Shown here piece by piece: positions 644 to 18,118 of a DNA stretch of 64,000 nucleotides; within the stretch, counting starts at the first letter, position 1; each line of letters opens with the position of its first letter. Source of the stretch: Methylacidiphilum caldifontis (GTDB lineage: Bacteria; Verrucomicrobiota; Verrucomicrobiia; Methylacidiphilales; CAMAQI01); NCBI GenBank assembly GCA_945877805.1, contig CAMCSM010000002.1, forward strand, positions 2,650 through 66,649, read 5' to 3'. A program made the position numbers and the translations under genes. The notes under the pieces were generated by a model that saw only the letters and a list, made by a program, of their open reading frames with translations, ran no database searches and was not told the origin of the DNA.

Positions 644-646
644 GTT

Positions 647-1981
647 ATGGCAGCAGGAAAACTTCTATCCAATTTTCAATGCCCGAATTGCGGTTCTGCG
701 GTCTCTTTGAGAGCGACAGGGATATCCCTCTCCGTTTCATGTAAAAACTGTCGTTCAATCATCGGAGTTGAAAATGAAAATTATAAAATCCTGAGCCAGT
801 TTGAAGCTTCAAAAACCGTCACACCTCTTATTCCTATAGGTACTCGAGGGGAAATTGAAAGCATTCTATTTGAGGTGATCGGATTTTTGGAGAGAACCGA
901 TCATCTCGGTTATCATCCCTGGCGAGAATATCTTCTTTTTAATCCCTATCACGGGTTCCGCTGGTTAGTCGAGGCTAAGGGGCACTGGTCATATGTGACA
1001 ATGATCAAGAAAACTGTTTTTCAGAAGAATTCTAGTGGTGAAATTGATTATCAAGGTCGCTCCTATTCATTATTTGATGAGGGGTCGGCAAAAGTTCGCT
1101 ATGTTTGGGGGGAATTCTATTGGAGAATTAAGAGAAATCAGGAGCTCGTCACAAAGGATTATGTTTCTCCTCCTTACATGCTTTCACTCGAACAAGAAAA
1201 TAGTGAGATTGTCTGGTCTCAAGCAATTTATCAAAAAGCTGAATTCATTCAAAAGACATTTAACATTCAACAAGTGATGCCGTATTCTATTGGGATTGCC
1301 CCTCATCAGCCCTGTTTTTGGGGGACGGTTTGGGATGAGGTCAAATGGGTCTCACTCTGTTTTTTGATTGTTTTAACTCTCATTCACTGTTTTTTAAATT
1401 CTCTCAATACTCAAAGCCTCTCTCATACTCAATCAGCGACTTATATCGCTCTTCCGAAAGGGGCCGTTCCTTCAAAGGGGGCCTTCGGGATTCAGCCCAT
1501 AAGAGAAAAGGATGTGTTAAATTCTGAAATTGAGACCCCAACCTTCGAGTTAAAAAATAATTTTACGGGCTTAGAAGTTGGACTTTGGGCCGATATCTCC
1601 AACGCTTGGGTCGCCTCAACTTTTGAGCTGGTTAACTGTGATACTGACGAAACAATTCCTCTTGAATCAGAAGTGGCTAATTATAACGGTTACGACAGTG
1701 ATGGCTATTGGTCAGAGGGCAGCAATCGAGTCTCTAATACCATCTCTTCGGTTCCTAAAGGCAGGTATTTTCTTCGTGCGGATATTGACGCAGATCCGGC
1801 TTTAAAGAAATTTGATTACCAAATTATGATCAAAGATGGCATTATTCCTCTTTTTAATCTCATTCTTGCGCTTTTTCTCGTTCTTTGTATTCCGATTTTT
1901 GCTTATTGGAGAAAATGGTCTTTTGAAGTGGAACGTTGGTCAGAAAGCGATTACTCTCCCTTCTCAACTGGAGAAGATTAA
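647..1981 (+). CDS. DUF4178-like protein, zinc-ribbon N-terminus, C-terminal membrane segments
   Basis: CPNCGS...CKNC ribbon. The DUF4178-like core is ILFEVIGFLERTDHLGYHPWREYLLFNPYHGFRWLVEAKGHW. Hydrophobic helices WVSLCFLIVLTLIHCFL and IIPLFNLILALFLVLCIPIFAYW. Confidence 0.65.
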   Translation: MAAGKLLSNFQCPNCGSAVSLRATGISLSVSCKNCRSIIGVENENYKILSQFEASKTVTPLIPIGTRGEIESILFEVIGFLERTDHLGYHPWREYLLFNPYHGFRWLVEAKGHWSYVTMIKKTVFQKNSSGEIDYQGRSYSLFDEGSAKVRYVWGEFYWRIKRNQELVTKDYVSPPYMLSLEQENSEIVWSQAIYQKAEFIQKTFNIQQVMPYSIGIAPHQPCFWGTVWDEVKWVSLCFLIVLTLIHCFLNSLNTQSLSHTQSATYIALPKGAVPSKGAFGIQPIREKDVLNSEIETPTFELKNNFTGLEVGLWADISNAWVASTFELVNCDTDETIPLESEVANYNGYDSDGYWSEGSNRVSNTISSVPKGRYFLRADIDADPALKKFDYQIMIKDGIIPLFNLILALFLVLCIPIFAYWRKWSFEVERWSESDYSPFSTGED

Positions 1982-1983
1982 CA

Positions 1984-2118
1984 ATGAAGACCTATATTGC
2001 CTACTGTTTGCTCATCAGCTTTGGACTGTGGTATATCGATAGCCACGGTGTTAATTTTTTATCCTCAAATTCAGCGGCGAAGCGCGGCATGAATCAACCT
2101 CAACCTCACCACAAATAA
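1984..2118 (+). CDS. small single-TM protein (hypothetical)
   Basis: An internal ATG of the 1936..2118 ORF lies 2 nt after the preceding TAA stop. Product is MKTYIAYCLLISFGLWYI... with one hydrophobic helix and a basic, His-containing tail. Support is operon packing only. Confidence 0.3.
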   Translation: MKTYIAYCLLISFGLWYIDSHGVNFLSSNSAAKRGMNQPQPHHK

Positions 2119-2129
2119 AAAGGGCCCTT

Positions 2130-2348
2130 ATGGAATCATTCTTCACACTCAAAACAATCGGTGCATCGATCTTTTATTCCGTTCTTGGAATTGGGATTTT
2201 TATCCTCGGATTTATCGGGTTTGATAAATTCACCCCTTACAATCTTTGGAAAGAGATCGTGGAAGAAAAAAACATTGCTCTCGCCATTATTGTTGGGGCG
2301 GTTGCTATTGGAATCTCCTTGATTATCTCTTCGGCTATTCACGGTTAA
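2130..2348 (+). CDS. DUF350 (YjfL-like) small membrane protein
   Basis: 72 aa with two or three TM helices. FILGFIGFDKFTPYNLWKEIVEEKNIALAIIVGAVAIGISLII is typical of DUF350. Confidence 0.7.
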   Translation: MESFFTLKTIGASIFYSVLGIGIFILGFIGFDKFTPYNLWKEIVEEKNIALAIIVGAVAIGISLIISSAIHG

Positions 2349-2355
2349 TTTTTTC

Positions 2356-3852
2356 ATGCAATTCTTACTTTTGGCCTCGGCCTTTGTCGTCGCCACATGT
2401 GGTCTGATTTACGAGCTGATCGCAGGAACTCTTGCGAGCTATCTTCTCGGTGACTCGGTGACGCAGTTTTCTACGATTATCGGGGTTTACCTCTTTTCAA
2501 TGGGAATCGGAGCCTATCTCTCTCGTTTCTTTAATCGAAATTTGATACGTGTTTTTATTCAGGTTGAGTTTCTAATCGGTATCATTGGTGGATCTCTCGG
2601 AGCGGTCCTTTTTCTTCTTTTTCCATGGATCGAACATTTTAGGGTAGCCCTTTATGCCTTGGTCTCTATTGTCGGAATTTTTGTCGGGCTTGAGATCCCT
2701 CTGCTTTTGAGAATTCTTCAAGATCGTTTTGAGTTCAAAGAATTAGTTTCAAAGGTTTTAACCTTCGACTATATCGGAGCTCTCGTTGCCTCACTTCTTT
2801 TTCCATTAGTTCTTGTTCCTCAAATCGGGCTTATTCGCACGGGGTTTCTTTTTGGAGCTTTCAATGTTTTCGTTGCTCTTCTTAGTCTTTATATTTTTAA
2901 AAAAGAATTAAAGTGGGTCGTCTCGCTTAAGGTCACCGGATTTTTCTGTCTTACGGCTCTCATTGCAGGTTTTTTTCTTTCTGAAAAAATTACCTCTTAC
3001 GCTGAGCAATCGCAGTATCCAAGTCGCATCATCTATTCAAAATCGACTCCTTATCAGAGAATTGTCGTGACTGAAAATCATCAGGATTACCGGCTCTTTC
3101 TGAATAGCAATCTTCAGTTTAGTTCCAAAGATGAATATCGCTATCATGAAGCGCTTGTTCACCCTGCTGTCTCGGGGGTAAAATCACCTTGCCATGCTCT
3201 TGTGCTGGGAGGAGGGGATGGAATGGCGGTTCGCGAGCTCTTAAAATGGGAGTCTATTGAGAAAATTACTTTGGTTGATCTTGATCCAGAAATGACACAA
3301 CTTTTTTCAAGTAAAAATATCCTTAGAGAGCTCAATCAAAACGCTCTCTTGTCCCCGAAACTTCAAATCATCAACGCAGATGCCTTCACTTGGCTTAAAT
3401 CGAATCAAAGCTCGTTTGATATTGTCGTTCTCGATTTTCCAGACCCTTCGAATTATTCGTTGAGCAAGCTTTTTACAACGTCGTTTTTTAAAATTCTTTA
3501 TGAACGGCTTACTCCAGGAGGGGCGATAGCGATCCAATGTACCTCTCCTCTCGTTGCGCGAAAATCGTTCTGGTGCATTGATGCGACACTTAAAAGCGTG
3601 GGATTTATGACGACTCCCTATCACGCTTATGTTCCCTCCTTTGGGGAATGGGGATTCATCATCGCTTCTCATCAGCCCTTTCAGATCGTTAAACCGTTTT
3701 GTCCCAATCTTAGATTCGTTTCAGAAAAGTCATTTGCTTCGATGCTTCAATTTCCTGATGATATGAGCTCTATTCCTGTTAAAATAAACACGCTTAACAA
3801 TCATTGCTTAGTTCAGTATTTCGAAAGCGAGTGGTCGGAGTATTCACACTGA
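2356..3852 (+). CDS. speE: membrane-fused polyamine aminopropyltransferase (spermidine synthase-like)
   Basis: About 220 N-terminal residues of TM helices, followed by a SpeE fold with the motifs LVLGGGDGMAVRELLKW, LVDLDPEM and VLDFPDPSN. Confidence 0.85.
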   Translation: MQFLLLASAFVVATCGLIYELIAGTLASYLLGDSVTQFSTIIGVYLFSMGIGAYLSRFFNRNLIRVFIQVEFLIGIIGGSLGAVLFLLFPWIEHFRVALYALVSIVGIFVGLEIPLLLRILQDRFEFKELVSKVLTFDYIGALVASLLFPLVLVPQIGLIRTGFLFGAFNVFVALLSLYIFKKELKWVVSLKVTGFFCLTALIAGFFLSEKITSYAEQSQYPSRIIYSKSTPYQRIVVTENHQDYRLFLNSNLQFSSKDEYRYHEALVHPAVSGVKSPCHALVLGGGDGMAVRELLKWESIEKITLVDLDPEMTQLFSSKNILRELNQNALLSPKLQIINADAFTWLKSNQSSFDIVVLDFPDPSNYSLSKLFTTSFFKILYERLTPGGAIAIQCTSPLVARKSFWCIDATLKSVGFMTTPYHAYVPSFGEWGFIIASHQPFQIVKPFCPNLRFVSEKSFASMLQFPDDMSSIPVKINTLNNHCLVQYFESEWSEYSH

Positions 3853-3854
3853 AT

Positions 3855-5492
3855 ATGAATTCCTTTTTTTCGCGCAGGAGTTTTTTGAAGTTAGGGGCCG
3901 CTGGCATGGCCTCCTCCGCATGGGGAGGATGTTTCTCAAGTCCGAAGCCTATTCCTGGGAAAATTTTAGGAGCCTCGGTTAAAGTGGGGCATCTACTCCG
4001 CTCCGGTTCGTTTCCCATTCCGGAAGAGATTGGAGAAAAATCAGTGGTCATTGTTGGGGGTGGAATCGCGGGATTAAGTGCCGGATGGAAACTGCAAAAA
4101 GCTGGCTTTACCGATTTCACTCTTTTAGAGCTTGAAAACGAAGTGGGAGGGAATTCTCAATCGGGAGGAAACGACTATTCCGCTTATCCTTGGGGAGCCC
4201 ATTATCTCCCGATTCCAAATCCAGAATCTGCTTATGTTCGGGAGTTGCTTGAGGATCTTCATTTAATCGAAGGTTATGATTCAAATCATCTGCCGATTTA
4301 TGACGAGTACTCCCTTTGTCATCCTCCTCAAGATCGACTCTTTATCCATGGGCGTTGGCAGGATGGAATTGAGCCGAAGTCCTCACTTAGCGCAGAGGAT
4401 AAGCTTCAGTTTGAGCGGTTTTGGAAAATCGTAGACCGATTTAAGAAAGCAAAAGGATCGGATGGAAAGCGTGCTTTTGCGATTCCTCTTGTCCTGAGCT
4501 CCCGTGATCAACGGTTCTTAGCTCTCGATAAAATGAGCGCAGCACAGTTTTTAAGTGCCGAGCAGCTAAACTCTAAATATCTGATCTGGTATTTAAATTA
4601 TTGTTGCAAAGATGATTATGGTGCGACGATTGAAACAGTTTCCGCATGGGCCGCGATTCATTATTTTGCATCGAGAATCGGAGTAGGAGCTAATGCAGGG
4701 CCACAATCAGTGCTTACGTGGCCTGAGGGAAACGGACATCTTGTTGAGGCGTTGCGCGCAAAAATATCCCCCCATATTCATACCGGATCACTCGTCTATT
4801 CGATTGACTCACAACCGGATTTTTCACACGTCGACTTCTTCGATCTTGCTACGCAAAGAAGCTTTCGCATCCGAGCCCAAAATGTGATCTTTGCCGCACC
4901 CCGATTTATCGCCCAACAGACGATTCCAAAACTCCCTCGTATTCAAGGAGGAAAATATAGTCCGTGGATGATCGCTAACATTACCCTCAAGCAGCTTCCA
5001 GCGGAGATCATGGACTCTTTTTCTTGGGATAATGTCATTTATGAGAGTGAATCCCTCGGTTACGTCGTTGCCACCCATCAGCGTTTGGATCGTCTGCTTC
5101 GAGGAACCGTTCTGACTTACTATTGCCCCCTTGTAGATCCTGATATTTCTAAAAGCCGTAAAATGTTATTGGAACGAACCCATGAAGAGTGGGTCGACCT
5201 CATTCTGAAAGATCTTCAACGACCGCATCCTTCCATACGTCAATACATTGAAAATATCGATCTATGGCGTTGGGGGCATGGGATGATTATTCCAACTCCG
5301 GGTTATATCTGGGGAGAAACACAACAAGATCGACTTCGAACTTTTCAAAAAATACATTTTGCTCACTCAGATATGAGTGGGATCTCTATTTTTGAAGAGG
5401 CTCAATATCACGGAGTCCAAGCTGCCGAATCGATTCTACGAAACTTAAAAACAACTCATCACACACAGAACGCATATGAATTTCCCATTTAA
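3855..5492 (+). CDS. Tat-signal FAD-dependent amine oxidase-like oxidoreductase
   Basis: I chose the internal ATG that gives MNSFFSRRSFLKLGAAG (twin-arginine motif), followed by AWGGC. Dinucleotide-binding motif VVIVGGGIAGLSAG. The C-terminal FAHSDMSG..FEEAQYHG is typical of the flavin amine oxidase/NAD(P)-binding family. Confidence 0.75.
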   Translation: MNSFFSRRSFLKLGAAGMASSAWGGCFSSPKPIPGKILGASVKVGHLLRSGSFPIPEEIGEKSVVIVGGGIAGLSAGWKLQKAGFTDFTLLELENEVGGNSQSGGNDYSAYPWGAHYLPIPNPESAYVRELLEDLHLIEGYDSNHLPIYDEYSLCHPPQDRLFIHGRWQDGIEPKSSLSAEDKLQFERFWKIVDRFKKAKGSDGKRAFAIPLVLSSRDQRFLALDKMSAAQFLSAEQLNSKYLIWYLNYCCKDDYGATIETVSAWAAIHYFASRIGVGANAGPQSVLTWPEGNGHLVEALRAKISPHIHTGSLVYSIDSQPDFSHVDFFDLATQRSFRIRAQNVIFAAPRFIAQQTIPKLPRIQGGKYSPWMIANITLKQLPAEIMDSFSWDNVIYESESLGYVVATHQRLDRLLRGTVLTYYCPLVDPDISKSRKMLLERTHEEWVDLILKDLQRPHPSIRQYIENIDLWRWGHGMIIPTPGYIWGETQQDRLRTFQKIHFAHSDMSGISIFEEAQYHGVQAAESILRNLKTTHHTQNAYEFPI

Positions 5493-6324: not shown

Positions 6325-6880
6325 TTATTGAAGTCAGGATGGGAGAAAAAACAGTCGGACGATTGGCAGAGGATCTTCAGACAGGGCAGATTTATTTTCA
6401 ATATGAAAATGAATGGATGCAGAGCGGCGTCAATATTTCCCCCTTTCATCTGGAATTTTATACGATTGCACAAAGACATCTGAACGAAAAGTTTCATGGA
6501 TTACACGGGGTATTTGCGAATCAGCAAAGAAGGAACGAGTCCTTTTCGGAATAAAAAGATTTGATCGTCACGAGGGAAAAAAGATTCATATGCACTCTCT
6601 TTCCGGACTATTGCATATCAGCCATCAGGAGTTATCGATTTCCTACGAGGATTTTATTTTAAGAGGGGTGGAGCTGACGGAAAATCATGAAACCGCAAAA
6701 GAAATTTTCAGACGGTGTGTATTTAACAGAATTGTCGGAAATTGTGATGATCACGCAAAAAATTTCGCATTCCTTCTCAAAGGGAAAGAGTGGATTCTCT
6801 CACCCTCCATCTCTTGTGCTCCATGTCCAGTTTAGGGCGAATACCGATGGCTTGAAGCTGCTTAATAAAAGCAAGTTTAA
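6321..6880 (+). pseudogene. hipA-like kinase toxin remnant (internally deleted, frameshifted)
   Basis: Frame 1 gives a HipA N-terminal-like sequence, MIIEVRMGEKTVGRLAED..IYFQYENEWMQSGVNISPF. A second frame gives RFDRHEGKKIHMH...FNRIVGNCDDHAKNFAFLLKGKEWILSP (HipA C-terminal catalytic motif). A further frameshift follows ILSP. The total is far shorter than intact HipA. Confidence 0.6.
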
Positions 6881-6895
6881 AAAAATTGCTCTTAT

Positions 6896-6924
6896 TTGAC
6901 AATATCATTGGCAAGCGTTATTTT
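6896..6924 (+). promoter_or_regulatory. candidate sigma70-type promoter upstream of actA
   Basis: TTGACA at 6896-6901, a 17-nt spacer, then TATTTT at 6919-6924. It lies about 140 nt upstream of the actA start. Confidence 0.3.
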
Positions 6925-7063: not shown

Positions 7064-7723
7064 ATGGCTAATCTATTTCCTAAAGAATCAAATATTGTCC
7101 CAATCAAAATTATCCTCTGTAAGATCATTACGGTGATTATGATCGTTTTGGGGATTACTTATTATTTCACTCCGAAGTACACCCGAGTCGGCTATAAACC
7201 TACTCAGCCGGTGGCCTTCGATCACTCCCTTCACGCTGGGCAACTCGGTTTGGATTGTCGCTATTGTCATAGCTTCGGAACGGTAAGCTCTCATTCTAAT
7301 GTTCCGACGACTCAAACTTGTATGAATTGTCACCGTCAGGTGAAATCAAACAGTCCTAAGCTCGCCCCGCTTCGCGAAAGCTGGGAGACGGGGAAGCCGA
7401 TGAAGTGGATCAAAATCCATCAAGCTCCTGATTATGTTTATTTCAATCACTCTGCTCACTTAAACCGTGGAATTAGCTGCGCAAGCTGTCACGGGAAGGT
7501 CAATGAGATGGAGGTTGTCTGGCACGATAAACCGCACAGCATGGGCTGGTGTTTAGAGTGTCATCGTAATCCTGAGTACCATATTCGTCCGCAAGAAGAG
7601 GTCTTTAATTTAAATTGGAAAGCCGGAGACGGCAGTACCAAAGCCCAAGTTGAACAAGGCCGTGAACTTGTCAAAAAGTGGGGTGTTAGTCCTCCTCAAA
7701 ACTGTCAAGCCTGTCACCGCTAA
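7064..7723 (+). CDS. actA: alternative complex III subunit ActA (pentaheme cytochrome c)
   Basis: N-terminal TM anchor and five CxxCH motifs (CRYCH, CMNCH, CASCH, CLECH, CQACH). It is the first gene of the act cluster. Confidence 0.9.
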   Translation: MANLFPKESNIVPIKIILCKIITVIMIVLGITYYFTPKYTRVGYKPTQPVAFDHSLHAGQLGLDCRYCHSFGTVSSHSNVPTTQTCMNCHRQVKSNSPKLAPLRESWETGKPMKWIKIHQAPDYVYFNHSAHLNRGISCASCHGKVNEMEVVWHDKPHSMGWCLECHRNPEYHIRPQEEVFNLNWKAGDGSTKAQVEQGRELVKKWGVSPPQNCQACHR

Positions 7724-7747: not shown

Positions 7748-10700
7748 ATGAAACGCAAGTGGCAACATCCAGAAAACACACAGAACGGCAAGCAATACTG
7801 GCGCAGCTTAGATGAGCTCTCCGGAACGCCTGCGTTTAGCAAATGGCTCCAACGCGAATTTCCCGCAGGGGCCGATGAACTCGAGCTCGATGCCGTCAGT
7901 CGTCGTAGCTTTCTCCGTCTCATGGGCGGATCGCTCGCGCTTGCTGGACTCGGAATGACCGGTTGCCGTCGTCCCGAAGGTTACATTGTCCCTTTCACCA
8001 ACTCTCCTGAGTGGATGGTTCCTGGAAAAACAACTCTTTACTCAACTGCAATGCCTCGTCGCCGCGGTGCCGTCTCTTTACATGCGACGACTTATGAAGG
8101 TCGTCCGACAAAGCTAGATGGAAATCCGCTATTAAACAACGGTCTCTCGGACTCACATGTTCAAGCGGCAATTCTTGATCTCTATGATCCAGACCGCACC
8201 CGTTTCTTTAAAAAAGGGAATAAGAAAGTCGATCTCGCTGCTTTTGCAACCTTTATCGAAGAGGTTTCAAAGAGTTATGCCTCGACTCAAGGGGAGGGGC
8301 TTGCTTTCCTCACAGAATCATCGACTTCGCCAACGCTCCAACGTCTTCGCGCTGAATTTAAATCAAAATTCCCCAAGGCGCTCATCTCTGCCTACGAAGC
8401 GATTTCGACCGATTCAGAGCTGAAAGCGACGGAGATTGCCTTTGGTCAACGTCTTCAACTCCTTCCTCAGTTTGATAAAGCCGATGTGATTCTTTCACTC
8501 GATTGCGATTTCTGCGCAACCGATGAAGGGGGAATTGGGGCGATTAAAGGATTTGCCTCCCGTCGTCGCGTTCGTAAATCAGGCGACACGATGAATCGTC
8601 TTTATGTCGCTGAAAGCCGGATCACCAGCACCGGCGGAATGGCCGATCATCGTCTTCGTCTCAAAGCCTCGCAACAGCCGGCCTTCCTCGCTTTAGTTGC
8701 TAAAGAGATGGCGGCTAACGGAGCCGGAGCCGATCTCATGACGCTTGCGAATAGTGTTTCTGGATCTGTCACCTTCACAGAAGTTCAACAGCGTTGGGCA
8801 CGTGAAACCGCCATTGATTTAATTAAGTATGGGAAGGGAATGGTCGTTGTCGGAAGTCAACAGCCGGTGGCCGTTCATTTGCTGGCGATTGCCATCAATC
8901 AAGCTCTGGGGGCTTATCGCAACGAAGTGATTCGAGTCACGGCCCCTGTTCAAATTCCAGCCGCTCCTTTTTCTGATCTCGTCACAGCAGTTAAAGCCGG
9001 TTCAGTCAAAACACTTTTCATCATTGGCGGAAATCCAGTTTACAATACTCCTGCCGATCTCGCTTGGGCTGATTTACAAAAATCGGTCGAGCAAGTGGTG
9101 CGCGTCGGTTCTTATGATGATGAGACGACTTCCGTTAAATCGGATTGGACGATTCCTCTCGCCCATTTCCTTGAAACTTGGGGAGATGCTCGTGCGGTTG
9201 ATGGAACCTACCTTGCGCTTCAGCCGATGATTCTCCCGCTCTTCGGTGCGGTTTCAGAGCTCCAAATTTTTGCTGCTCTCTTAGGTGAAAAAGAGTGTCT
9301 CATGCCGCTTCCGGTGGTTGCCCCTGCGAAAGTGGCGGCTCCAACAGTTCCAGGTCAAGTGAGCAATCTTCCGATTCCTCCAGAGTTGACGGTGGTTCAA
9401 AAAACCTTTGTCGAAGTGACTAAAGCAAACAACTGGAATAAGCTCCTTCACGACGGTTTCTGGGCCGGTTCCGCTTTTGCCCATGTAGCGGTCGCTTATC
9501 GCTCCGCAGCCGTGGTCGATTCGGTCAAACAAAATTTCCCAAGCTATCAAGAAGGACTCGAAGTCACTTTCTTTGCTTGTCCAAAAATTGATGACGGTCG
9601 CTATGCGAACAACGGATGGCTCCAAGAGCTGCCCGATGTTCAATCGAAGTTGACTTGGGATAACGCCGCTTACGTCAGCTATACCACCGCTCGCAAACTC
9701 GGATTAAGAATTGCGGAGATCAAGCCGCTCACGATTGCATTGGATCCGACTGAGGTCAAACGTCGCGAAGAGAATCCTACTTTGGAACTCGATGGGGATG
9801 ATGCCGATGTCGTGATCATTGAGGTCGATGGACGTTCGATTGAGATTCCGGTTTATGTGATGCCCGGTCAAGCCGACGATTCGATTGCGATTGCGCTCGG
9901 ATACGGAAGATCCTTTAACGGTTATGTCGGCAACAAGGTCGGATCAAATGCCTTTGCGATTCGAACCTCTGCGAATTTATTGGTCGCTCAAAACGTTAAA
10001 CTCAGTCGTGCGAATAAAGATTTTAGACTCGCTCAAACCCAACACCATTTCAGCATGGAAGGTCGTGCGATTGTTCGTGAGTTGACTTTGGAAGAGTTTA
10101 ATAAGAATGCGGGGATCGTGAAGGTCATGGGAATCGATGGTCACCAACCAGAAGATATGGCCTCTCTTTATGAAACCCAAATGGGAACGGGCCATCGTCC
10201 GCAACTCTCTGATCCTCATCAATGGGGAATGGTCATCGATTTAACGACCTGTGTCGGTTGTAATGCTTGCGTCGTTGCTTGCCAAAGTGAGAACAATATT
10301 CCGATCGTCGGAAAGAATCAAGTCGGACGCGGTCGATCGATGCATTGGATGCGAATCGATCGTTACTATTCCGAATCTCCTACCGATCCACAAATGGCCG
10401 TTCAACCGATGCTCTGTCAGCATTGCGAAAATGCACCGTGCGAAACGGTTTGCCCAGTGAATGCGACCGTTCACAGTGAAGATGGATTAAATGTGATGGC
10501 TTATAATCGTTGTATCGGAACTCGATATTGCGCGAACAACTGTCCGTATAAAGTTCGTCGTTTTAATTTCTTCGATTACAACAAGCGTAAAGTCAATAAA
10601 TCACATAAGCTACTTGGATTCGAAGTCGGCAATCTTTACTTTGGACCGTTCGGCGAGCAAAACGAAGATAAGATGGCCGAGATGCAAAAGAATCCGAATG

Positions 10701-11131
10701 TCACCGTGCGGATGCGTGGTGTCATGGAGAAGTGTACTTTTTGTATCCAACGCGTCGAAGAGGCAAAGATCAATTCCCTTCGCCTTTCGAAGAATACGGA
10801 AAAGCAGAAAGTTGCAACCGACTCCTTTAAATCAGCCTGTCAACAGGCCTGTCCCGCAGAGGCGATTGTCTTTGGTGATATCGCTAATCCGGAGAGCGAA
10901 GTGACCAAGCTTCGTGCTTTGGATCAAAACTACGGCGTTCTTTCCTATCTTGGAACTCGTCCTCGTGTGACTTACTTAGCGCGCGTTCGGAATCCAAATC
11001 CATTACTCCCGGATGACTATGAAAAAGTCGGACTTAAGAGTGATTGGGATAAACAAAGTCATCTCGGCGGACATGGAAATGGCCATGGCGAGGAACACGG
11101 AGCTCATAAAAGTGAGCCCGCACACCACTAA
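7748..11131 (+). CDS. actB: alternative complex III subunit ActB (molybdopterin-oxidoreductase-like plus 4Fe-4S ferredoxin domain)
   Basis: The YWRSLDEL...EFP leader and the Tat motif SRRSFLRLMGG. Cys clusters CVGCNACVVAC, CQHCENAPCETVCP and CIGTRYCANNCPYKVRRFN. 1127 aa. Confidence 0.9.
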   Translation: MKRKWQHPENTQNGKQYWRSLDELSGTPAFSKWLQREFPAGADELELDAVSRRSFLRLMGGSLALAGLGMTGCRRPEGYIVPFTNSPEWMVPGKTTLYSTAMPRRRGAVSLHATTYEGRPTKLDGNPLLNNGLSDSHVQAAILDLYDPDRTRFFKKGNKKVDLAAFATFIEEVSKSYASTQGEGLAFLTESSTSPTLQRLRAEFKSKFPKALISAYEAISTDSELKATEIAFGQRLQLLPQFDKADVILSLDCDFCATDEGGIGAIKGFASRRRVRKSGDTMNRLYVAESRITSTGGMADHRLRLKASQQPAFLALVAKEMAANGAGADLMTLANSVSGSVTFTEVQQRWARETAIDLIKYGKGMVVVGSQQPVAVHLLAIAINQALGAYRNEVIRVTAPVQIPAAPFSDLVTAVKAGSVKTLFIIGGNPVYNTPADLAWADLQKSVEQVVRVGSYDDETTSVKSDWTIPLAHFLETWGDARAVDGTYLALQPMILPLFGAVSELQIFAALLGEKECLMPLPVVAPAKVAAPTVPGQVSNLPIPPELTVVQKTFVEVTKANNWNKLLHDGFWAGSAFAHVAVAYRSAAVVDSVKQNFPSYQEGLEVTFFACPKIDDGRYANNGWLQELPDVQSKLTWDNAAYVSYTTARKLGLRIAEIKPLTIALDPTEVKRREENPTLELDGDDADVVIIEVDGRSIEIPVYVMPGQADDSIAIALGYGRSFNGYVGNKVGSNAFAIRTSANLLVAQNVKLSRANKDFRLAQTQHHFSMEGRAIVRELTLEEFNKNAGIVKVMGIDGHQPEDMASLYETQMGTGHRPQLSDPHQWGMVIDLTTCVGCNACVVACQSENNIPIVGKNQVGRGRSMHWMRIDRYYSESPTDPQMAVQPMLCQHCENAPCETVCPVNATVHSEDGLNVMAYNRCIGTRYCANNCPYKVRRFNFFDYNKRKVNKSHKLLGFEVGNLYFGPFGEQNEDKMAEMQKNPNVTVRMRGVMEKCTFCIQRVEEAKINSLRLSKNTEKQKVATDSFKSACQQACPAEAIVFGDIANPESEVTKLRALDQNYGVLSYLGTRPRVTYLARVRNPNPLLPDDYEKVGLKSDWDKQSHLGGHGNGHGEEHGAHKSEPAHH

Positions 11132-11153: not shown

Positions 11154-12593
11154 ATGGCGCATGGCACGACATCAGTGAACGCGAATAGCCCCGACTACAT
11201 CGCTGCGGCGAAGCAGGTCGAACGTCCTCCTCTCGTAGGGGGAGGTCACGGCTTTCATTGGATCACCGAAAAAATTTGTTCAATCATCGAGTGTGATACC
11301 CCTCGTTGGTGGTGGATCGCATTTTTTATTACCGGAGCTATTTCGCTTCTCGTTCCGCTGAGTTTGATTTATCTCGTCTCCACCGGAATTGGAACTTGGG
11401 GATTAAATCATCCCGTCGGTTGGGCTTGGGATATTACGAACTTCGTTTTTTGGATCGGGATCGGACACGCTGGAACGCTGATTTCTGCGATTCTCTTTTT
11501 GACTCGTCAAAAATGGCGTACCTCAATTAATCGTGCGGCCGAAGCGATGACCCTTTTTGCGGTGATCTGTGCCGGAATCTTTCCGGCCTTTCACGTCGGA
11601 CGTGTCTGGTTTGCCTGGTTTTTGGCTCCCGTTCCTCAAGCGAATGCGATTTGGCCGAACTTCCGTAGTCCGTTGCTCTGGGACGTTTTTGCGGTCTCGA
11701 CCTACTTCACGGTTTCAGTTCTTTTTTGGTACACCGGTTTGATTCCTGATTTCGCTACCTTACGGGATCGCGAAGTGAAGGTCTGGAAAAAGAAACTTTA
11801 TCATATCCTCTCCTTTGGCTGGCGCTCTTCGAATCGTCAATGGAAGCATTATGAAATGGCTTATCTCTGTCTCGCCGGTTTAAGTACCCCGTTGGTGCTT
11901 TCGGTTCACTCCATCGTTTCCTTTGACTTTGCGACCTCAATCGTTCCTGGTTGGCATACGACGATTTTCCCTCCCTACTTTGTGGCGGGAGCGATCTTCG
12001 GAGGATTTGCGATGGTGTTGACGGTGATGCTTCCGTTCCGAAAGATTTTCGGATTGGAGGATTTGATCACGGAAAAGCATATCGATAATATGTGTAAGAT
12101 CATTTTGTTGACTGGCTCGATCGTCGGTTATGCCTATTTGATGGAGCTTTTTATTGCTTGGTATAGCGGCAATCCGTACGAAAAATATGCTTTCTGGAAT
12201 CGTGCTTTAGGGCCGTATTGGTGGTCCTATTGGGGGATGATGATTTGTAACGTCTTGATTCCACAGCTTTTCTGGGTGAACAAATTCCGTAAAAATGTGG
12301 TGGCGGTTTGGATTATCGTTTGGGGTCCGAACATTGGAATGTGGTACGAGCGTTTCGTGATCATCGTGACCTCGATTCATCGCGACTTCCTTCCCTCCTC
12401 GTGGGGAATGTTTAAGCCTGCGCTGAATGACATCACCCTCTTTGTCGGAACTTGTGGTTTATTTACGTGGCTGTTTTTGGTCTTTATCCGATTCCTTCCG
12501 GTGATTGCGATTGCGGAGGTGAAAGGGGTGGTTCCTGAAGCGGATCCCCACTTCCATGGAAAAGAGGATCCTAAGGGAGGTCATCATGTCTAA
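11154..12593 (+). CDS. actC: alternative complex III subunit ActC (NrfD/PsrC-like quinol-interacting membrane subunit)
   Basis: Polytopic membrane protein containing [31 protein letters not shown] (NrfD-like). Its position after actB supports the call. Confidence 0.9.
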
Positions 12594-13173
12594 TGCACCG
12601 GTTTATGGCGTAGGGGCTGAGTTTAAGTCGGCAACAGATCTTTATCATGCGGCAGAGGTTGTCCGTGATAAAGGATTCAAATGGTGGGATACCTATTCCC
12701 CTTATCCGATCCACGGCATGGAGAATGCCATGGGCACAGGCAAGTCATGGGTCTCGATGTTTGTTTTGGGTGGAGGAATGACGGGGTTTACCCTCGGTAT
12801 TTCTTTGGAGTCGTTGACTTCGATCCCTCGTCCTGAGTTTCTCAAAGATATTCAGAGCGGTTGGTTACTCGATCTTTTTTATCCGCTCATTGTGAATGGA
12901 AAGCCGTATTGGGCCTTACCGGCTTTCTTCCCGGTGATGTTTGAGCTGACGATTTTGCTCTCGGCATTTGGGGCGATTATCGGAATGTTGATTTGTAACA
13001 TTTTACCTCGATTGAACCACCCGGTTTTCAATTGGGAGCTTTTCTGCAAAAGAGCGAGCGATGATAGCTTCTTTTTAATCATTGAAGCGGCCGATCCTCT
13101 TTATGCGGAAGAAGAGACGAAGAAGCTATTGGAAGAACTGGGTGGAACCCAAATCACGGTGATTTCAAAATGA
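12586..13173 (+). CDS. actD: alternative complex III subunit ActD (DUF3341)
   Basis: An internal ATG preceded by AAGGGAGG overlaps the actC stop. [45 protein letters not shown] is typical of ActD. Confidence 0.8.
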
Positions 13174-13787
13174 GATACTACCTTCTAGGATTATTTGTAG
13201 CGGTCACAGCGATTCTCTGTGTCGTCGGTTTTCGTGGTCAAAAGACAGAGCGAACACCGATCGAGATCTTTGATGACATGGATCGCCAGGCCAAAGTGAA
13301 ATATCAAAAGCCAAGTGAATTCTTTGCGAATGGTCAAGGGTCACGGATGCCGATTACGGGAACAGTTCCTGCGACGATTCCGATTGATGATGACTATTTC
13401 GTCACCGGAGCGATCGGAAATCAGTGGGGAGATGGAATGCCAAAAAGCGTGACGGTTTCCACTAAGTTTATGGTCGCTGGTAAGGAGCGTTATGAGATTA
13501 ACTGTCGTGTCTGTCACGGATCGACGGGAGTGGGCAACGGCATTGTGACTCAGTACGGATTGGCGGGAGTCGCTAATTTGACGGATGATCGTATTCGAGC
13601 GATGTCCGATGGAGAGCTCTTTAATACCATTACCAAGGGTAAAGGGCAAATGATGGGCTACGGGGCGAATATCACCCCTCAGGATCGATGGGCGATTGTC
13701 GCTTATGTGCGGGCACTTCAACGAAGCCAAAAAACTTCATTGAATGACGTTCCAGAAACTGAACGTGAAAAGTTGCTGAAAAAATAA
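13170..13787 (+). CDS. actE: alternative complex III subunit ActE (monoheme cytochrome c)
   Basis: N-terminal TM helix and a single CRVCHG heme motif. ATGA overlap with actD. Confidence 0.8.
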   Translation: MRYYLLGLFVAVTAILCVVGFRGQKTERTPIEIFDDMDRQAKVKYQKPSEFFANGQGSRMPITGTVPATIPIDDDYFVTGAIGNQWGDGMPKSVTVSTKFMVAGKERYEINCRVCHGSTGVGNGIVTQYGLAGVANLTDDRIRAMSDGELFNTITKGKGQMMGYGANITPQDRWAIVAYVRALQRSQKTSLNDVPETEREKLLKK

Positions 13788-13800
13788 CAGGTTAAAAGTC

Positions 13801-15027
13801 ATGGAAGCAAAAGTTCAAGATCGAGTCAGTTTAAAGAAAGAGGACCTAGGGGGGACGATTACCGCCCTTTGGGCCATTGGTATTGTCGGATTGATTGGGG
13901 CGGCGATTGGCTGTCACCTGAATCCGAAGGCCTTTAATTTTTCTTGGTTATTTTCTTTCATGGTATTTTATACGATGGCGGCCGGTTCCTTTTTCTGGCT
14001 CGTTGTTCAACATGCGACGAATTCCGGATGGAATACCTTGGTGCGTCGTCAATTGGAGAATGTTGTCGGGGTATTTCCTTATTTGGCCTTATTCTTTATT
14101 CCGTTATTGCCGATTGTCGGCGGGGATCGACTTCATTCACTCTGGCCTTGGTTGAATCCAGCGGTGACGGATCATGATCCGCTATATCATGCAAAAGCCG
14201 GTTATTTTACGATGGGTTTTGATTGGCCTGCTTTTTTTTATCTGCGTTTGGCCATTTACTTTACGACTTTTGTGTTGGTGGGCTCATGGTTCCGTCGTCG
14301 GTCGCTGCAGCAAGATAGCGATGGTCATCCGATTCACTCGGTGGTGATGAGAAAGACCTCCTACGGCGTGATTGCGCTCTTTGCAATCAGTATCAGTTTC
14401 TCTGCGATCGATTGGATGATGACTATGGACTATCGTTGGTATTCAACGATGTGGGGAGTTTATATCTTTGCAGGCTGTGCGGGATCGGCCATGGCGTTGT
14501 TGGCGATTATTCTTCATTCTTTGAAAGCAAAGGGGTATCTCCAGCTCGTCACCGAGGAGCATTTTCATATTGTCGGTAAATTGATGTTTGCCTTCACGAT
14601 TTTCTGGTCCTATGTCGCTTTCAGTCAATTTATGTTGATCTGGTACGCGAACATTCCGGAAGAGACGATCTTTTATAAAATCCGTAATACCCCTGAATGG
14701 TTTCCGTTAAGTATTGGAATGCTTTTCGGGCATTTTATTATTCCGTTTCTTTGGTTAATCGGACAAGCGGCAAAGAAAACTCCTTGGCGTTTAATTGCAG
14801 GGGCTTCGTGGATGATTTTCATTCATATCTGTGATCTTTATTGGATTATTATGCCCGTCTATCAAAAGAGTCCGATTCCGGATTGGAAGCACTTCCTTCT
14901 CAATGCGAGTTGTTTCTTGGGAATTGGCTGTATTATTGCGGCGGTATTCCTGAGAAATCTGACAAAAGCAAACCTTTACCCGGTGAAGGATCCTCGTCTG
15001 GACGAATCCATTCATTTGAAGAACTAA
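13801..15027 (+). CDS. actF: alternative complex III subunit ActF (second NrfD-like membrane subunit)
   Basis: Polytopic membrane protein at the position after actE. It contains MLIWYANIPEETIFY, typical of ActF/quinol:cytochrome c oxidoreductase membrane proteins. Confidence 0.85.
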   Translation: MEAKVQDRVSLKKEDLGGTITALWAIGIVGLIGAAIGCHLNPKAFNFSWLFSFMVFYTMAAGSFFWLVVQHATNSGWNTLVRRQLENVVGVFPYLALFFIPLLPIVGGDRLHSLWPWLNPAVTDHDPLYHAKAGYFTMGFDWPAFFYLRLAIYFTTFVLVGSWFRRRSLQQDSDGHPIHSVVMRKTSYGVIALFAISISFSAIDWMMTMDYRWYSTMWGVYIFAGCAGSAMALLAIILHSLKAKGYLQLVTEEHFHIVGKLMFAFTIFWSYVAFSQFMLIWYANIPEETIFYKIRNTPEWFPLSIGMLFGHFIIPFLWLIGQAAKKTPWRLIAGASWMIFIHICDLYWIIMPVYQKSPIPDWKHFLLNASCFLGIGCIIAAVFLRNLTKANLYPVKDPRLDESIHLKN

Positions 15028-15035
15028 GGAAATTT

Positions 15036-15368
15036 ATGACAGATACCCATCACTCTTCAGAATCAAAAGGGGGCTTCGGTTCTTTTTTAAAGATCTCCTT
15101 AGGGATTGTTTTTTTTGGTCTTGTGACCGGTTCGATCCTTTGCGCTTATCGTGCAGAGAATAAGACCTATGATCAAACTCGTGCGATTGAGAGAACGAAA
15201 AAGTTAACGGAACTCCGAGTAAAAGAGGCGGCTGTTTTGGATTCTTATGCGGTTGTGGATGAGGCGAAAGGAATTTATCAAATTCCGGTTTCGAGATCGA
15301 TGGAGCTCGAAATAGAGGCGCTTAAGAATAAGCCCCTTCGGCCCGCTGGAGTGATCGTCGTTAAATAA
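15036..15368 (+). CDS. small single-TM protein between the act and cco-like genes
   Basis: An internal ATG 6 nt after the actF stop. One TM helix (ISLGIVFFGLVTGSILCAY) followed by a soluble tail. I recognised no family. Confidence 0.5.
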   Translation: MTDTHHSSESKGGFGSFLKISLGIVFFGLVTGSILCAYRAENKTYDQTRAIERTKKLTELRVKEAAVLDSYAVVDEAKGIYQIPVSRSMELEIEALKNKPLRPAGVIVVK

Positions 15369-15378
15369 AAGGTTTTAT

Positions 15379-16854
15379 ATGAATTGCTCAACAGATATTC
15401 AGTTAGAGGGATGTGGCGATGAGAGCTTAGACCGTTCTTTGCAGGGACCGTTAAGTCTTCTTTTTGTTTGCTCTGCCTTGTGGTTAGTGGTTTCCAGTCT
15501 TTTAGGAGCAGTCGCTTTTTGGCAGCTTAAATTTCCTGGGTTCATTGATTTCCAGGCCGGAATTCAGACGCCGTATATAGGATGGTTTTTTGACCTCATT
15601 CATCAGGCCTTGAATTATGGACGTGCGGTTGCAGCGACGAAGAGCGTGATGATTTACGGGTGGTTGTTACAAGGATTCTTAGGTGTGGCGCTTTGGCTCA
15701 CCGGTCGTTTGACAAAGAAGATGGCTTGTAAAACCGGCAACTATTTTTTACACGGGGCGATTGCGCTTTGGAATATTGGAGTTCTCGTTGGAGTCATTGG
15801 AATTTTTTCTGGTGAAGCGAGTGGCTTTGCGGGATTTGACTTTCCGAAGTATGCGGCTGCGATTCTTTTTGTTGCCTACGCTTTTATTGGTTTAGGGATG
15901 GGAATGCGATTTGCGAAGAAGAGCTGTTCGGTGTCGAAGCCATCGGAATGGTATTTGATCGGGGCAATCTTCTGGTTTCCTTGGTTTTTTGCGGTCGCCT
16001 ACTATTTTGTTTTTTGTAAGGTCATTTTCGGAGTGATGCCTGCCCTCGTCCATGCTTGGTATATCGGAGGACTCGAAGTTCTGGTGTTAGGATCGGTAGC
16101 GGTATCGATTCTTTACTATTTAGTCCCTTCGATTTTGGGAGTGGCTTTAAATCGTGAGCAATCGGCAAAAACTGCTTTTTGGTTTTTTGCCTTTTTAGGG
16201 GCTTGGTCAGGGGTTCGACATCTGGTGGGAGGACCGCTTCCGGCATGGATGATTAGCTCCAGTGTTGTTGCGGGGGTATTGCTTTTAATTCCAGGAACGA
16301 TCAACGCCAACAATCAAATGGTTCCGCTTTGGTCAAACTGGTGCAAGGTTAAGTCGACCCCTGTGCTTTGGTATTTGGCAACGGGTGGGGTTTCCCTTTT
16401 AGTTTGGATCGTGCTTGAGGCCTTTATGTCGCTGAGAGGAGTGAGCGCGGCGCTTCGATTCAGTTATTTTGAAATGGGAGTCTCGGCGGTTTTTGAATAT
16501 GCCTTCTTATCGATGGTTTTATTCGGATCGATCTATGCGATTCTTCCGACGTTGACTGGAAAGGAACTGCCGTGCTGCGTGAAGTGCTGTTCTAAGTGTC
16601 AATTTTGGTGGGGTTTTTGTGGAGTGATTACCTTTTTTACCGGGACTTTTTTTGCGGGGACTTTTATGGGATTGGGAATTAACTTTGCGCCGATGGCCTT
16701 TGTAGCGACGATGAATTTAGCGAGTCCTTTTTTCTGGCTCTCGGTGGTGGGAGGAACGATGGTTCTTCTTGCAAATTTAATCTTCGTTAAAAACGTAGTG
16801 GCAACGCTGTTGGCTGCTTGTTGTGAATCGAATAAGGAAGGATGTTGCTCATGA
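15379..16854 (+). CDS. CcoN-like (cbb3 oxidase subunit I family) membrane protein lacking most metal-ligand histidines
   Basis: Homology blocks to CcoN: YGRAVAATKSVMIYGW, VHAWYIGG..ILYYLVP, WSGVRHLVGGPLPAWM and LLIPGTINANNQM. The whole 491-aa protein contains only 4 His. Cys-rich motifs PCCVKCCSKC and AACCESNKEGCCS. Confidence 0.75.
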   Translation: MNCSTDIQLEGCGDESLDRSLQGPLSLLFVCSALWLVVSSLLGAVAFWQLKFPGFIDFQAGIQTPYIGWFFDLIHQALNYGRAVAATKSVMIYGWLLQGFLGVALWLTGRLTKKMACKTGNYFLHGAIALWNIGVLVGVIGIFSGEASGFAGFDFPKYAAAILFVAYAFIGLGMGMRFAKKSCSVSKPSEWYLIGAIFWFPWFFAVAYYFVFCKVIFGVMPALVHAWYIGGLEVLVLGSVAVSILYYLVPSILGVALNREQSAKTAFWFFAFLGAWSGVRHLVGGPLPAWMISSSVVAGVLLLIPGTINANNQMVPLWSNWCKVKSTPVLWYLATGGVSLLVWIVLEAFMSLRGVSAALRFSYFEMGVSAVFEYAFLSMVLFGSIYAILPTLTGKELPCCVKCCSKCQFWWGFCGVITFFTGTFFAGTFMGLGINFAPMAFVATMNLASPFFWLSVVGGTMVLLANLIFVKNVVATLLAACCESNKEGCCS

Positions 16855-17504
16855 ATGGTTACGGACGTCTTTTTGTCGGAATCTTGCTTGCCTTTGTTTT
16901 TTCTTGGGCGGCGTTGATTTTAGTTCCTTTAAATCAGGTTGGAAATTTAATGCCTTTGGAGGATCAAACCAGTGGGGATCTGAACCCTCCGGCGTTGAGT
17001 GGTTTAGCGAAACGGGGATCTCAAGTCTATGCGGCCAATGGGTGTGCCAGTTGCCATACGCAACAGGTTCGCTCGGAGAGCGGGGGATCGGATATCGCTC
17101 GTCAATGGGGAGCGCGTCAAACAGTTGCCCGTGATTATTTATATCAATCGAATCCGAATTTAGGCTCGATGCGGTTAGGGCCTGATCTTGCCAATTTAGG
17201 GGTAGAGCGTCCTGATTTAAATGCGAATGCAGGGCCGAAGAAAAAATATGAACCGGCCTCGCTTCATCAACTTTTTTATGCTCCTCGATCGATTATGGGA
17301 TCAAGCCATCCGAGTTATTCCTTTTTATATGAGAAACGGGCAATTAAGGGGGTCAATGCAGAGGGCTCTTTGATTCTTCCTGTCGGATTTGAAACAGAAG
17401 AGGGGAAAGAGGTTGTTCCTTCCGAAGATGCTAAAGCGTTGGTCGCTTATCTTCTCTCTTTAAATCGTATGTATGCGCTGCCTGAAGCGCCGGTGAAACC
17501 ATAA
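16851..17504 (+). CDS. CcoO-like monoheme cytochrome c subunit
   Basis: I chose the ATG at 16851 because AAGGAAGG lies about 9 nt upstream and it forms an ATGA overlap with the previous stop. TM anchor, the heme motif GCASCHTQQVR, and GSMRLGPDLANLG, which matches the CcoO GPDL motif. Confidence 0.75.
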   Translation: MNGYGRLFVGILLAFVFSWAALILVPLNQVGNLMPLEDQTSGDLNPPALSGLAKRGSQVYAANGCASCHTQQVRSESGGSDIARQWGARQTVARDYLYQSNPNLGSMRLGPDLANLGVERPDLNANAGPKKKYEPASLHQLFYAPRSIMGSSHPSYSFLYEKRAIKGVNAEGSLILPVGFETEEGKEVVPSEDAKALVAYLLSLNRMYALPEAPVKP

Positions 17505-17518
17505 AGAGGAACGGGTGT

Positions 17519-18118
17519 ATGTCTGATCATTCTTCAAATCAATCGAACGAAAATTCTCATCAAGAATCGATGCTTCCAACGTGGATGTATTGGGTTTTTG
17601 CAGCCCTTCTTATTTGGGGGGGAGCTTATTTAATGCGCTATTCCGGTGGGTTTAGTGGTGAGGTTTATGATGAGTCGACGGTGACTTATGGCCCGGTAAA
17701 AGGGGGGGCAGCGGCAGTCGAGGATCCTAAGGCTTTGGGAGCCCGAGTATTTAAAGCGAATTGTGCACAGTGCCATCAATTGACTGGGCTTGGAGTAGAG
17801 GGACAGTATCCTCCTTTGGCCGGTGCGGAGTATGTATTGGGCAGCGAGGCTCATGTGATTCGTATTTTGCTTCATGGTTTAGTTGGTCCTGTGACGGTGA
17901 AGGGAAAACCTTACAATGGAAATATGGCCCCTTGGAAAGATGTTTTGGATGACAAAAAGATTTCTCAAGTGCTGACTTATATTCGATCGGATTGGGGAAA
18001 TAATGCCTCGGCGATTACTCCCGAGATGGTAGCGGCTGTTCGTAAAGAAGAGACAGCACGTTCAGCCTCATGGACTGAAAAAGAGCTTGAGGCGGCCCCT
18101 AAGGTACTTCCGAAATAG
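17519..18118 (+). CDS. membrane-anchored monoheme class I c-type cytochrome
   Basis: TM helix WMYWVFAALLIWGGAYL, the heme motif CAQCHQ and the distal GNMAPW motif. Confidence 0.75.
   Translation: MSDHSSNQSNENSHQESMLPTWMYWVFAALLIWGGAYLMRYSGGFSGEVYDESTVTYGPVKGGAAAVEDPKALGARVFKANCAQCHQLTGLGVEGQYPPLAGAEYVLGSEAHVIRILLHGLVGPVTVKGKPYNGNMAPWKDVLDDKKISQVLTYIRSDWGNNASAITPEMVAAVRKEETARSASWTEKELEAAPKVLPK

Follow-up and report, generated by a model that had tools for sequence, protein, structure and literature searches.

The stretch of DNA considered here is a 64-kb window (64,000 nucleotides; positions 2,650 to 66,649 of contig CAMCSM010000002.1, assembly GCA_945877805.1) from a member of the Verrucomicrobiota filed as Methylacidiphilum caldifontis. 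It carries an operon for alternative complex III (ACIII), a quinol-oxidising respiratory complex, and behind it a gene, which we call pseudo-CcoN, for a relative of CcoN, subunit I of the cbb3-type cytochrome c oxidases. A first reading made from the sequence alone (the sequence-only reading) had described a CcoN homologue of 491 amino acids (aa) with an intact frame, aligned to CcoN in several blocks, and it was right on both counts. The open reading frame (ORF) at 15379-16854 on the plus strand begins with ATG and runs unbroken to its stop, and its 491-aa product matches the Pfam COX1 model (PF00115) over the full length (residues 27-461 against model positions 5-436 of 436), scoring 93.4 bits against a cut-off of 34.8 (E=1.8e-26). 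The nearest solved relatives by phmmer are the cbb3 CcoN chains 9g6b_A, 3mk7_A and 8smr_E (E 1e-8 to 1e-10). The gene and its key positions are:

15379..16854, plus strand: pseudo-CcoN, a 12-transmembrane-helix heme-copper-oxidase subunit I fold without the ligands of heme b, heme b3 and CuB (homology and AlphaFold2 model).
15553..15600, plus strand: 16-residue insertion (residues 59-74) between transmembrane helices 1 and 2, found in the clade of the window protein only (hhalign insertion state and family alignment).
15637..15639, plus strand: codon T87, at the position of low-spin heme b ligand His60 (MAFFT and hhalign columns).
16066..16068, plus strand: codon G230, at the position of CuB ligand His207 (alignment columns).
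16198..16200, plus strand: codon G274, at the position of the cross-linked Tyr251 (alignment columns).
16216..16221, plus strand: codons R280-H281, at the positions of CuB ligands His257 and His258, of which only the second is kept (alignment columns).
16480..16488, plus strand: codons V368-S369-A370, covering the positions of His345 (heme b3) and His347 (heme b) (alignment columns).
16573..16599, plus strand: Cys-rich motif CCVKCCSKC in the loop between transmembrane helices 10 and 11, predicted cytoplasmic, conserved in the clade of the window protein (family alignment).
16819..16848, plus strand: C-terminal motif CCESNKEGCC, predicted cytoplasmic, conserved in the same clade (family alignment).

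Catalytic subunits of the heme-copper superfamily are recognised by six invariant histidines, two for the low-spin heme, one for the high-spin heme and three for CuB or FeB. We checked these columns in three ways: by phmmer against 3mk7_A, by MAFFT with 11-15 His-complete CcoN sequences, and by profile-profile alignment with hhalign, in which the ligand-less profile matched the canonical one over 471 columns with probability 100 and E=1e-116. All three methods place identical residues in the ligand columns of pseudo-CcoN. In the numbering of Pseudomonas stutzeri, His60 is replaced by T87, His207 by G230, His257 by R280, His345 by V368 and His347 by A370, while His258 is kept as H281; that is, one ligand of six remains, and it is a CuB ligand. 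The sequence-only reading had counted four histidines in all and had placed only the second of the HH pair at a ligand position. The count is correct (H75, H125, H225 and H281), and the agreement of the three alignments bears out the placement, with five of the six ligand positions devoid of histidine. The column of the cross-linked Tyr251 holds G274 here and G, A or S across the ligand-less family. Three polar columns that are invariant in 11 canonical sequences are changed as well (Thr215 to G238, Ser240 to A263, Tyr317 to L340/341); we take these to be residues of the single proton pathway proposed for cbb3 oxidases by Buschmann et al. (2010).

The fold, as far as prediction can tell, has been retained. 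An AlphaFold2 model of pseudo-CcoN built on 38 family sequences has a mean pLDDT (predicted local distance difference test) of 86 and a pTM (predicted template modelling score) of 0.88, with the C-terminal Cys tail below a pLDDT of 50. The sequence-only reading had proposed an overlay of such a model on a cbb3 structure. Compared by Foldseek with cbb3 CcoN structures, the predicted model matches over its full length, with template modelling (TM) scores of 0.84-0.88 and a root-mean-square deviation of 2.3-3.0 Å at 18% identity; against subunit I of nitric oxide reductase (NOR) and of the ba3 and aa3 oxidases the TM scores are lower, at 0.70-0.79. The model thus indicates that the 12-helix subunit I scaffold is retained and the ligands are not.

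Pseudo-CcoN is a member of the heme-copper superfamily by homology and fold; judged by its ligand columns, it lacks the cofactor features by which an oxidase or a nitric oxide reductase is defined. We therefore file it as a cofactor-less variant of the C family and not as a cbb3 oxidase. The NCBIfam equivalog model for ccoN (TIGR00780) agrees, in that pseudo-CcoN scores 66.6 bits against a cut-off of 583.15. This model is narrow, since a canonical, His-complete verrucomicrobial CcoN (P0012) also falls under the cut-off at 243.7 bits, but pseudo-CcoN scores far lower than P0012. Public records nevertheless name members of the family 'cbb3-type cytochrome c oxidase subunit I', and one could take that label at face value and suppose a working cbb3 oxidase whose histidines have been misplaced by alignment. 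The histidines to make this work are hardly there: the protein has only four, of which H125 is absent even from an orthologue of 93% identity and H75 lies beside a periplasmic insertion. Misalignment is ruled out by the agreement of phmmer, MAFFT and hhalign together with the full-length structural match, and with the low TIGR00780 score we regard a working oxidase as practically inconceivable.

Another way to explain missing ligands is that the gene is decaying, or that the histidines have been lost to sequencing or assembly error. Syntenic operons are present in two lake metagenome-assembled genomes (MAGs), the only close orthologues returned by a scan of genome contigs, and their pseudo-CcoN proteins are 93% and 83% identical to that of the window, each with an intact frame of 491 aa. 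We estimated dN/dS, the ratio of non-synonymous to synonymous substitution rates, by the Nei-Gojobori method between the window and these two orthologues. For pseudo-CcoN the ratio is 0.08-0.09 at dS 0.46-1.23, with no pseudogene-like decay; it is 0.02-0.04 for ActA, B, C, D and F of ACIII (ActB 0.03-0.04), 0.07-0.10 for the CcoO-like gene downstream, 0.04 for the c552-like gene after that and 0.10-0.13 for the small ORF upstream. Purifying selection clearly acts on pseudo-CcoN, though the constraint is a little weaker than on ACIII. Its non-synonymous rate, two to four times that of the ACIII genes, is what decay could point to. Sequencing error is excluded because the 93% and 83% orthologues, from independent MAGs, carry the same residues at the ligand columns, and hundreds of diverse full-length relatives also lack the ligands. 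With intact orthologues and dN/dS of 0.08-0.09, a pseudogene or an artefact is ruled out for practical purposes, as very improbable, and the description of a retained pseudo-oxidase in the sequence-only reading holds in three genomes. The contigs of the two MAGs, whose operon proteins are 83-98% identical to those of the window, bear the titles 'Methylacidiphilum sp. Phi' and 'Akkermansia muciniphila'; the two cannot both hold, and the taxonomy is probably erroneous or a placeholder.

Ligand loss is not confined to the window and its orthologues. An initial protein search returned mostly homologues that are likewise ligand-less, with a wide variety of residue patterns at the ligand columns. 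An exhaustive profile search over 1.84 billion cluster representatives gave 4092 matches at E<1e-3 and 841 at E<1e-30. Among the best 150 matches, 143 were full length; 139 of these lack at least two of the six histidines, 124 have none or one, and only 4 are canonical. Canonical CcoN would have ranked in this list had they been numerous, because canonical verrucomicrobial CcoN score 570-600 bits on the same family profile. A search seeded with a member from the Verrucomicrobiales returned 541 clusters at 90% identity, and among the 120 of these that were listed all 118 full-length sequences are ligand-less, 104 of them without histidine at any ligand column and often with Phe at the heme positions. 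Searching a word-indexed protein database again with the family alignment added almost nothing. In total the family comprises at least 139 ligand-less clusters at 50% identity, and no cultured carrier was found among its public records.

Across the family the ligand columns mostly hold A/F/Q, N/G/Q, G/A/S, P/Q/R, R/A, L/Q/V and Q/L. The family alignment reveals no alternative ligand conserved at these columns, and what stays invariant throughout the family is limited to structural residues, namely Trp, Gly and Pro. A redox active site in pseudo-CcoN appears unlikely, since five of the six ligands are gone and no replacement set is conserved. A neighbour-joining tree groups every ligand-less sequence in a single clade, with the His-complete CcoN of other Verrucomicrobiota as its sister group. 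The tree points to a single ancient loss of the ligands, although a neighbour-joining tree of such highly divergent sequences is weak evidence. What is plain is that this is a large, old and very diverse ligand-less clade in Verrucomicrobiota. One sub-clade, with loci L003 and L011, has the pattern N-S-Q-R-Y-H/Q, in which Tyr replaces the proximal heme b3 histidine in at least 13 sequences and the second heme b position is His or Gln; it may have had a different fate from the clade of the window protein.

The surroundings of pseudo-CcoN were as the sequence-only reading had them, with ACIII upstream and CcoO-like and cytochrome c genes downstream; the heme motifs of the latter two are CASCH and CAQCH. 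The operon contains a complete ActABCDEF set, a small membrane protein and two cytochromes:

7064..7723, plus strand: ActA, pentaheme cytochrome c (Pfam Cytochrome_C7/c3; five CxxCH; same position in all related loci).
7748..11131, plus strand: ActB, fused molybdopterin-like and 4Fe-4S protein of 1127 aa (Fer4_7 and Fer4_11 domains).
11154..12593, plus strand: ActC, NrfD-like quinol-binding membrane subunit (Pfam NrfD, E=9.6e-21).
12556..13173, plus strand: ActD (Pfam ActD PF11821, E=1.1e-55).
13170..13787, plus strand: ActE, monoheme cytochrome c with CRVCH (Pfam Cytochrome_CBB3 and Cytochrom_C; one CxxCH).
13801..15027, plus strand: ActF, second NrfD-like membrane subunit (phmmer to Rhodothermus marinus ActF 6f0k_F, E=9.6e-67).
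15036..15368, plus strand: small single-transmembrane protein of 110 aa between ActF and pseudo-CcoN (aligns with the equivalent ORFs of L003, L004 and L005).
16842..17504, plus strand: CcoO-like membrane-anchored monoheme cytochrome c with CASCH (Pfam FixO, E=1.8e-11; 3mk7_B, E=1e-5).
17519..18118, plus strand: protein in the CcoP position, with a FixP_N-like transmembrane anchor and one c552-type heme c domain with CAQCH (Pfam Cytochrom_C, Cytochrome_CBB3 and FixP_N).

The stop of pseudo-CcoN overlaps the start of the CcoO-like gene by 13 nt, so translational coupling of the two is suggested. We compared the window with eight other loci that carry a ligand-less gene (L003, L004, L006, L007, L008, L011, L012 and the locus of P0028), whose pseudo-CcoN proteins are only about 30% identical to that of the window. 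The order ActABCDEF, small transmembrane protein, pseudo-CcoN, CcoO-like heme c protein and anchored monoheme cytochrome c is the same in all nine, so that retention next to ACIII, claimed for the window, extends to every locus compared. This gene order, together with the overlapping frames, suggests that pseudo-CcoN may be physically associated with ACIII. The small protein has no relative in Pfam, NCBIfam or PDB, and its ORF is conserved in canonical and ligand-less operons alike.

The canonical counterparts occupy the same slot. His-complete sister genes stand behind ActF at L005 (P0012) and L010 (P0009), and a third (P0024, at L009) stands alone. The canonical operon has an identical layout, that is, ActABCDEF, the small transmembrane protein, CcoN, FixO and a monoheme cytochrome c, and the canonical proteins, about 29% identical to pseudo-CcoN, form its sister clade. 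They differ in keeping all six histidines and the Tyr, in having Met as the CcoO ligand, and in the genes that stand beside them. At all three canonical loci an ORF of 67-82 aa overlaps the start of ccoN, with FixS/CcoS as its top or second Pfam match, though these matches are sub-threshold (E 1.7e-4 to 0.02). A P-type ATPase gene is likewise adjacent at all three; the two ATPases scored against the heavy-metal P1B model TIGR01525, those of L005 and L009, reach 415 and 407 bits against a cut-off of 346. At the ligand-less loci themselves, neither a FixS-like ORF nor a P1B ATPase stands beside pseudo-CcoN (0 of 9). The adjacent cofactor-insertion genes thus vanish together with the ligands, although copies may exist elsewhere in the genome. 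At L005 (5559-7559) ActC and ActD are fused into one protein of 666 aa with NrfD and ActD domains.

The partner cytochromes have kept their heme motifs. CxxCH is present in every CcoO-like protein that we compared, and the third subunit carries a single heme whether the operon is canonical or ligand-less. The best PDB matches of the window's protein in the CcoP position are the cytochrome c domain of the Ralstonia copper nitrite reductase and Thermus c552; c552 is a physiological donor to CuA oxidases. The putative sixth heme ligand of the CcoO-like protein varies over the family. Its column holds Met in canonical L005 (SIMPPF) and in L003 and L007, His in L004, and apparently Cys in L006 and L008; in the window it is His156 (SSHPSY; 17307-17309), as in L001 and L002, the loci of the two lake MAGs. 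This suggests that the potential of the CcoO-like heme c has been retuned in particular lineages.

A candidate acceptor is encoded near some of these operons. Three of the nine ligand-less loci have an A-type COX1 gene no more than 10 kb downstream, and at L008 a complete aa3 operon follows directly, with the COX1 motifs GAMHG, AHPEVY, WAHHMY and AHFHY all present. The L008 COX2 protein (281 aa) has the CuA motif and no CxxCH, and the aa3 oxidase therefore needs an external cytochrome c donor.

Our preferred reading, to which we give a probability of roughly 55%, is that the locus holds a fossil cbb3 oxidase, whose subunit I is now a cofactor-free scaffold and whose two c-type cytochromes form an electron-output module of ACIII, probably feeding an aa3 oxidase. 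A verrucomicrobial ancestor would have encoded ACIII together with a canonical oxidase of CcoN, CcoO and a monoheme CcoP. In one descendant lineage, heme b, heme b3 and CuB would have gone from subunit I, along with the cross-linked Tyr and the polar residues of the proton pathway, and the 12-helix fold would have outlived the loss; the ligand columns suggest that cofactors are now absent from it altogether. The redox-inert scaffold may then tether the single-helix CcoO-like heme c and the c552-like cytochrome beside ACIII. Electrons would pass from menaquinol to ActB, on to ActA and ActE, and from there to the CcoO-like heme and the c552-like heme. Their destination would be a separate acceptor, most probably the CuA centre of an A-type (aa3) oxidase without a cytochrome c domain of its own, or alternatively another periplasmic acceptor. 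Of the three roles that the sequence-only reading had offered, docking scaffold and electron relay fit best. The third, a proton channel, is disfavoured because the canonical polar pathway residues have been replaced (Thr215 by G238, Ser240 by A263, Tyr317 by L340/341).

Several observations weigh against the preferred reading. It is unclear why selection should maintain a 491-aa scaffold that merely holds two single-helix cytochromes. A simple high-potential relay does not predict a sixth ligand that changes between Met, His and possibly Cys, and an A-type oxidase is near in only the three loci mentioned. In the 64-kb window no other terminal oxidase was found by Pfam among 37 of the 40 ORFs of at least 200 aa, reaching up to 62.5 kb. 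Finally, the clade of the window protein conserves residues for which a bare scaffold gives no account: charged residues in the region of the former active site (K88, E233, R280, R360 and E365), and two Cys clusters, CCxxCC (residues 399-404) and CCx6CC (residues 481-490), that persist down to 63% identity. These charges and clusters hint at an additional function.

The charged residues are the basis for supposing that pseudo-CcoN has become an ion-conducting, proton-conducting or conformational-coupling module, in which a new hydrophilic core adds charge translocation to ACIII, in the manner of cofactor-less antiporter-like or NrfD-like subunits. With H281 they sit in helices 2, 6, 7 and 10, where the hemes and CuB used to be, and the gene is under purifying selection. 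ACIII already has cofactor-less NrfD-like subunits that are thought to move protons. The charged core is, however, limited to the small clade of the window protein; family-wide only Trp, Gly and Pro are invariant, and the canonical pathway residues are gone. We consider such a module unlikely.

The Cys clusters raise the prospect that a cofactor is still bound through unconventional ligands, with a new catalytic or sensing activity at a metal or Fe-S site on the clusters or at a site formed by His75, His225 and His281. A metal or Fe-S site on these clusters is possible. Pseudo-CcoN has 17 Cys against 0-4 in His-complete relatives, and both clusters are predicted from CcoN topology to face the cytoplasm. 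His75, immediately after the insertion between helices 1 and 2, where a periplasmic helix is predicted at residues 68-77, and His225 are kept in all five members of the clade, and His281 in four of the five. The conserved Tyr of the L003 and L011 sub-clade, standing in place of the proximal heme b3 ligand, would also fit. The Cys clusters, the His set and this Tyr are all confined to parts of the family, however, and the heme axial positions of the window protein are Thr, Val and Ala. The heme and copper insertion genes of the canonical loci are absent beside the ligand-less genes, and the C-terminal Cys tail is modelled with low confidence. A cofactor held in this way strikes us as distinctly unlikely.

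Either idea can be put more broadly as a neofunctionalised ACIII module, with K88, E233, R280, R360 and E365 as an ion-translocating element or with a new metal centre on CCxxCC and CCx6CC. This is a long shot, but if true it would amount to a verrucomicrobial quinol-oxidising supercomplex with a mechanism unseen in characterised respiratory enzymes.

Returning to the fossil oxidase with its electron-output module, we compared it with systems that have been described. Best matches in sequence and fold, the N-O-P gene order, CxxCH in the CcoO-like partner and a FixP_N-type anchor on the third subunit tie it to the cbb3 CcoNOP enzymes of P. stutzeri (3MK7/5DJQ) and P. aeruginosa (8SMR). It is set apart from them by the loss of five of six ligands, the cross-linked Tyr and the three polar pathway residues, by His in place of Met in the sixth-ligand column of the CcoO-like protein, by one heme instead of two on the third subunit, and by the lack of ccoS- and ccoI-type genes alongside. 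PMC8498564 (citing Refojo 2010) and PMC6688271 place ACIII beside a C-type oxidase in verrucomicrobial methanotrophs and Opitutaceae, read there as genuine cbb3, and PMC13608581 reports both ACIII and a cbb3-type oxidase in Limisphaera genomes.

Altered active sites found in metagenomes have a precedent in gNOR and other newly defined heme-copper families (Murali et al. 2024, PMC11214002). That paper presents gNOR as the first family to replace one active-site histidine in an otherwise completely conserved set, and the replacement is by Asp; here five of the six ligands are gone and none is replaced consistently. In the ACIII-aa3 of Flavobacterium johnsoniae (6BTM) and the ACIII-caa3 of R. marinus, as outlined in PMC8552683, electrons reach the A-type oxidase through a tethered heme c, a role analogous to that proposed for the CcoO-like and c552-like pair. 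The tether there is a sixth heme domain of ActA or caa3 itself, whereas the ActA of the window has five hemes and the relay hemes would be carried on a degenerate oxidase scaffold. ActF, ActC and other NrfD-like subunits (PMC8076601) are likewise large, polytopic, cofactor-less parts of a quinol-oxidising complex, with a structural or ion-handling role, but unlike pseudo-CcoN they do not derive from a heme-copper catalytic subunit.

A full-text literature search, with subscription papers such as Refojo et al. 2010 outside its scope, returned no published description of a ligand-less CcoN; we put the chance that one has already been noted somewhere at roughly one in five. The sequence-only reading had known of no described function for such a protein. 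The case is wider than that reading could show: the ligand-less family runs to hundreds of clusters, a canonical sister occupies the same slot, and the CcoO-like partner has itself apparently exchanged its Met ligand for His. Among heme-copper oxidoreductases the family would stand as the first clear branch of pseudo-enzymes, and it offers a natural experiment on the reuse of a catalytic respiratory subunit as a structural component of a supercomplex. It is also relevant to the route by which ACIII hands electrons on to partner enzymes, a matter still open according to PMC8552683. Because the family is large, environmentally common and labelled cbb3 subunit I, inference of high-affinity, microaerobic respiration in Verrucomicrobiota from ccoN as a marker gene may be systematically wrong.

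Promoter and terminator scans of the operon gave counts not above shuffled expectation, and a TTGACA-17-TATTTT site at 6896-6924, upstream of actA, is suggestive only. Just upstream of the ACIII operon, an ORF of 140 aa (6413-6835, plus strand) has at its end a motif, ...GNCDDHAKNFAF..., that recalls the C-terminal domain of HipA kinase; the ORF may be the remnant of a truncated toxin. Further upstream, positions 14-5492 of the plus strand encode two DUF4178 proteins, a protein of 498 aa with a spermidine-synthase domain and a flavin amine oxidase-like protein; this cluster looks polyamine-related and unconnected with pseudo-CcoN. Directly downstream of the pseudo-cbb3 genes, three of the nine ligand-less loci carry a CCG/4Fe-4S oxidoreductase (L003 13129-15961, minus strand; L011 13254-16079, minus strand; L012 12877-14202, plus strand), accompanied in L003 and L011 by flavin adenine dinucleotide (FAD)-oxidase domains similar to GlcD/GlcF or D-lactate dehydrogenase. 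This oxidoreductase may represent a recurring neighbour, supplying electrons to the quinone pool.

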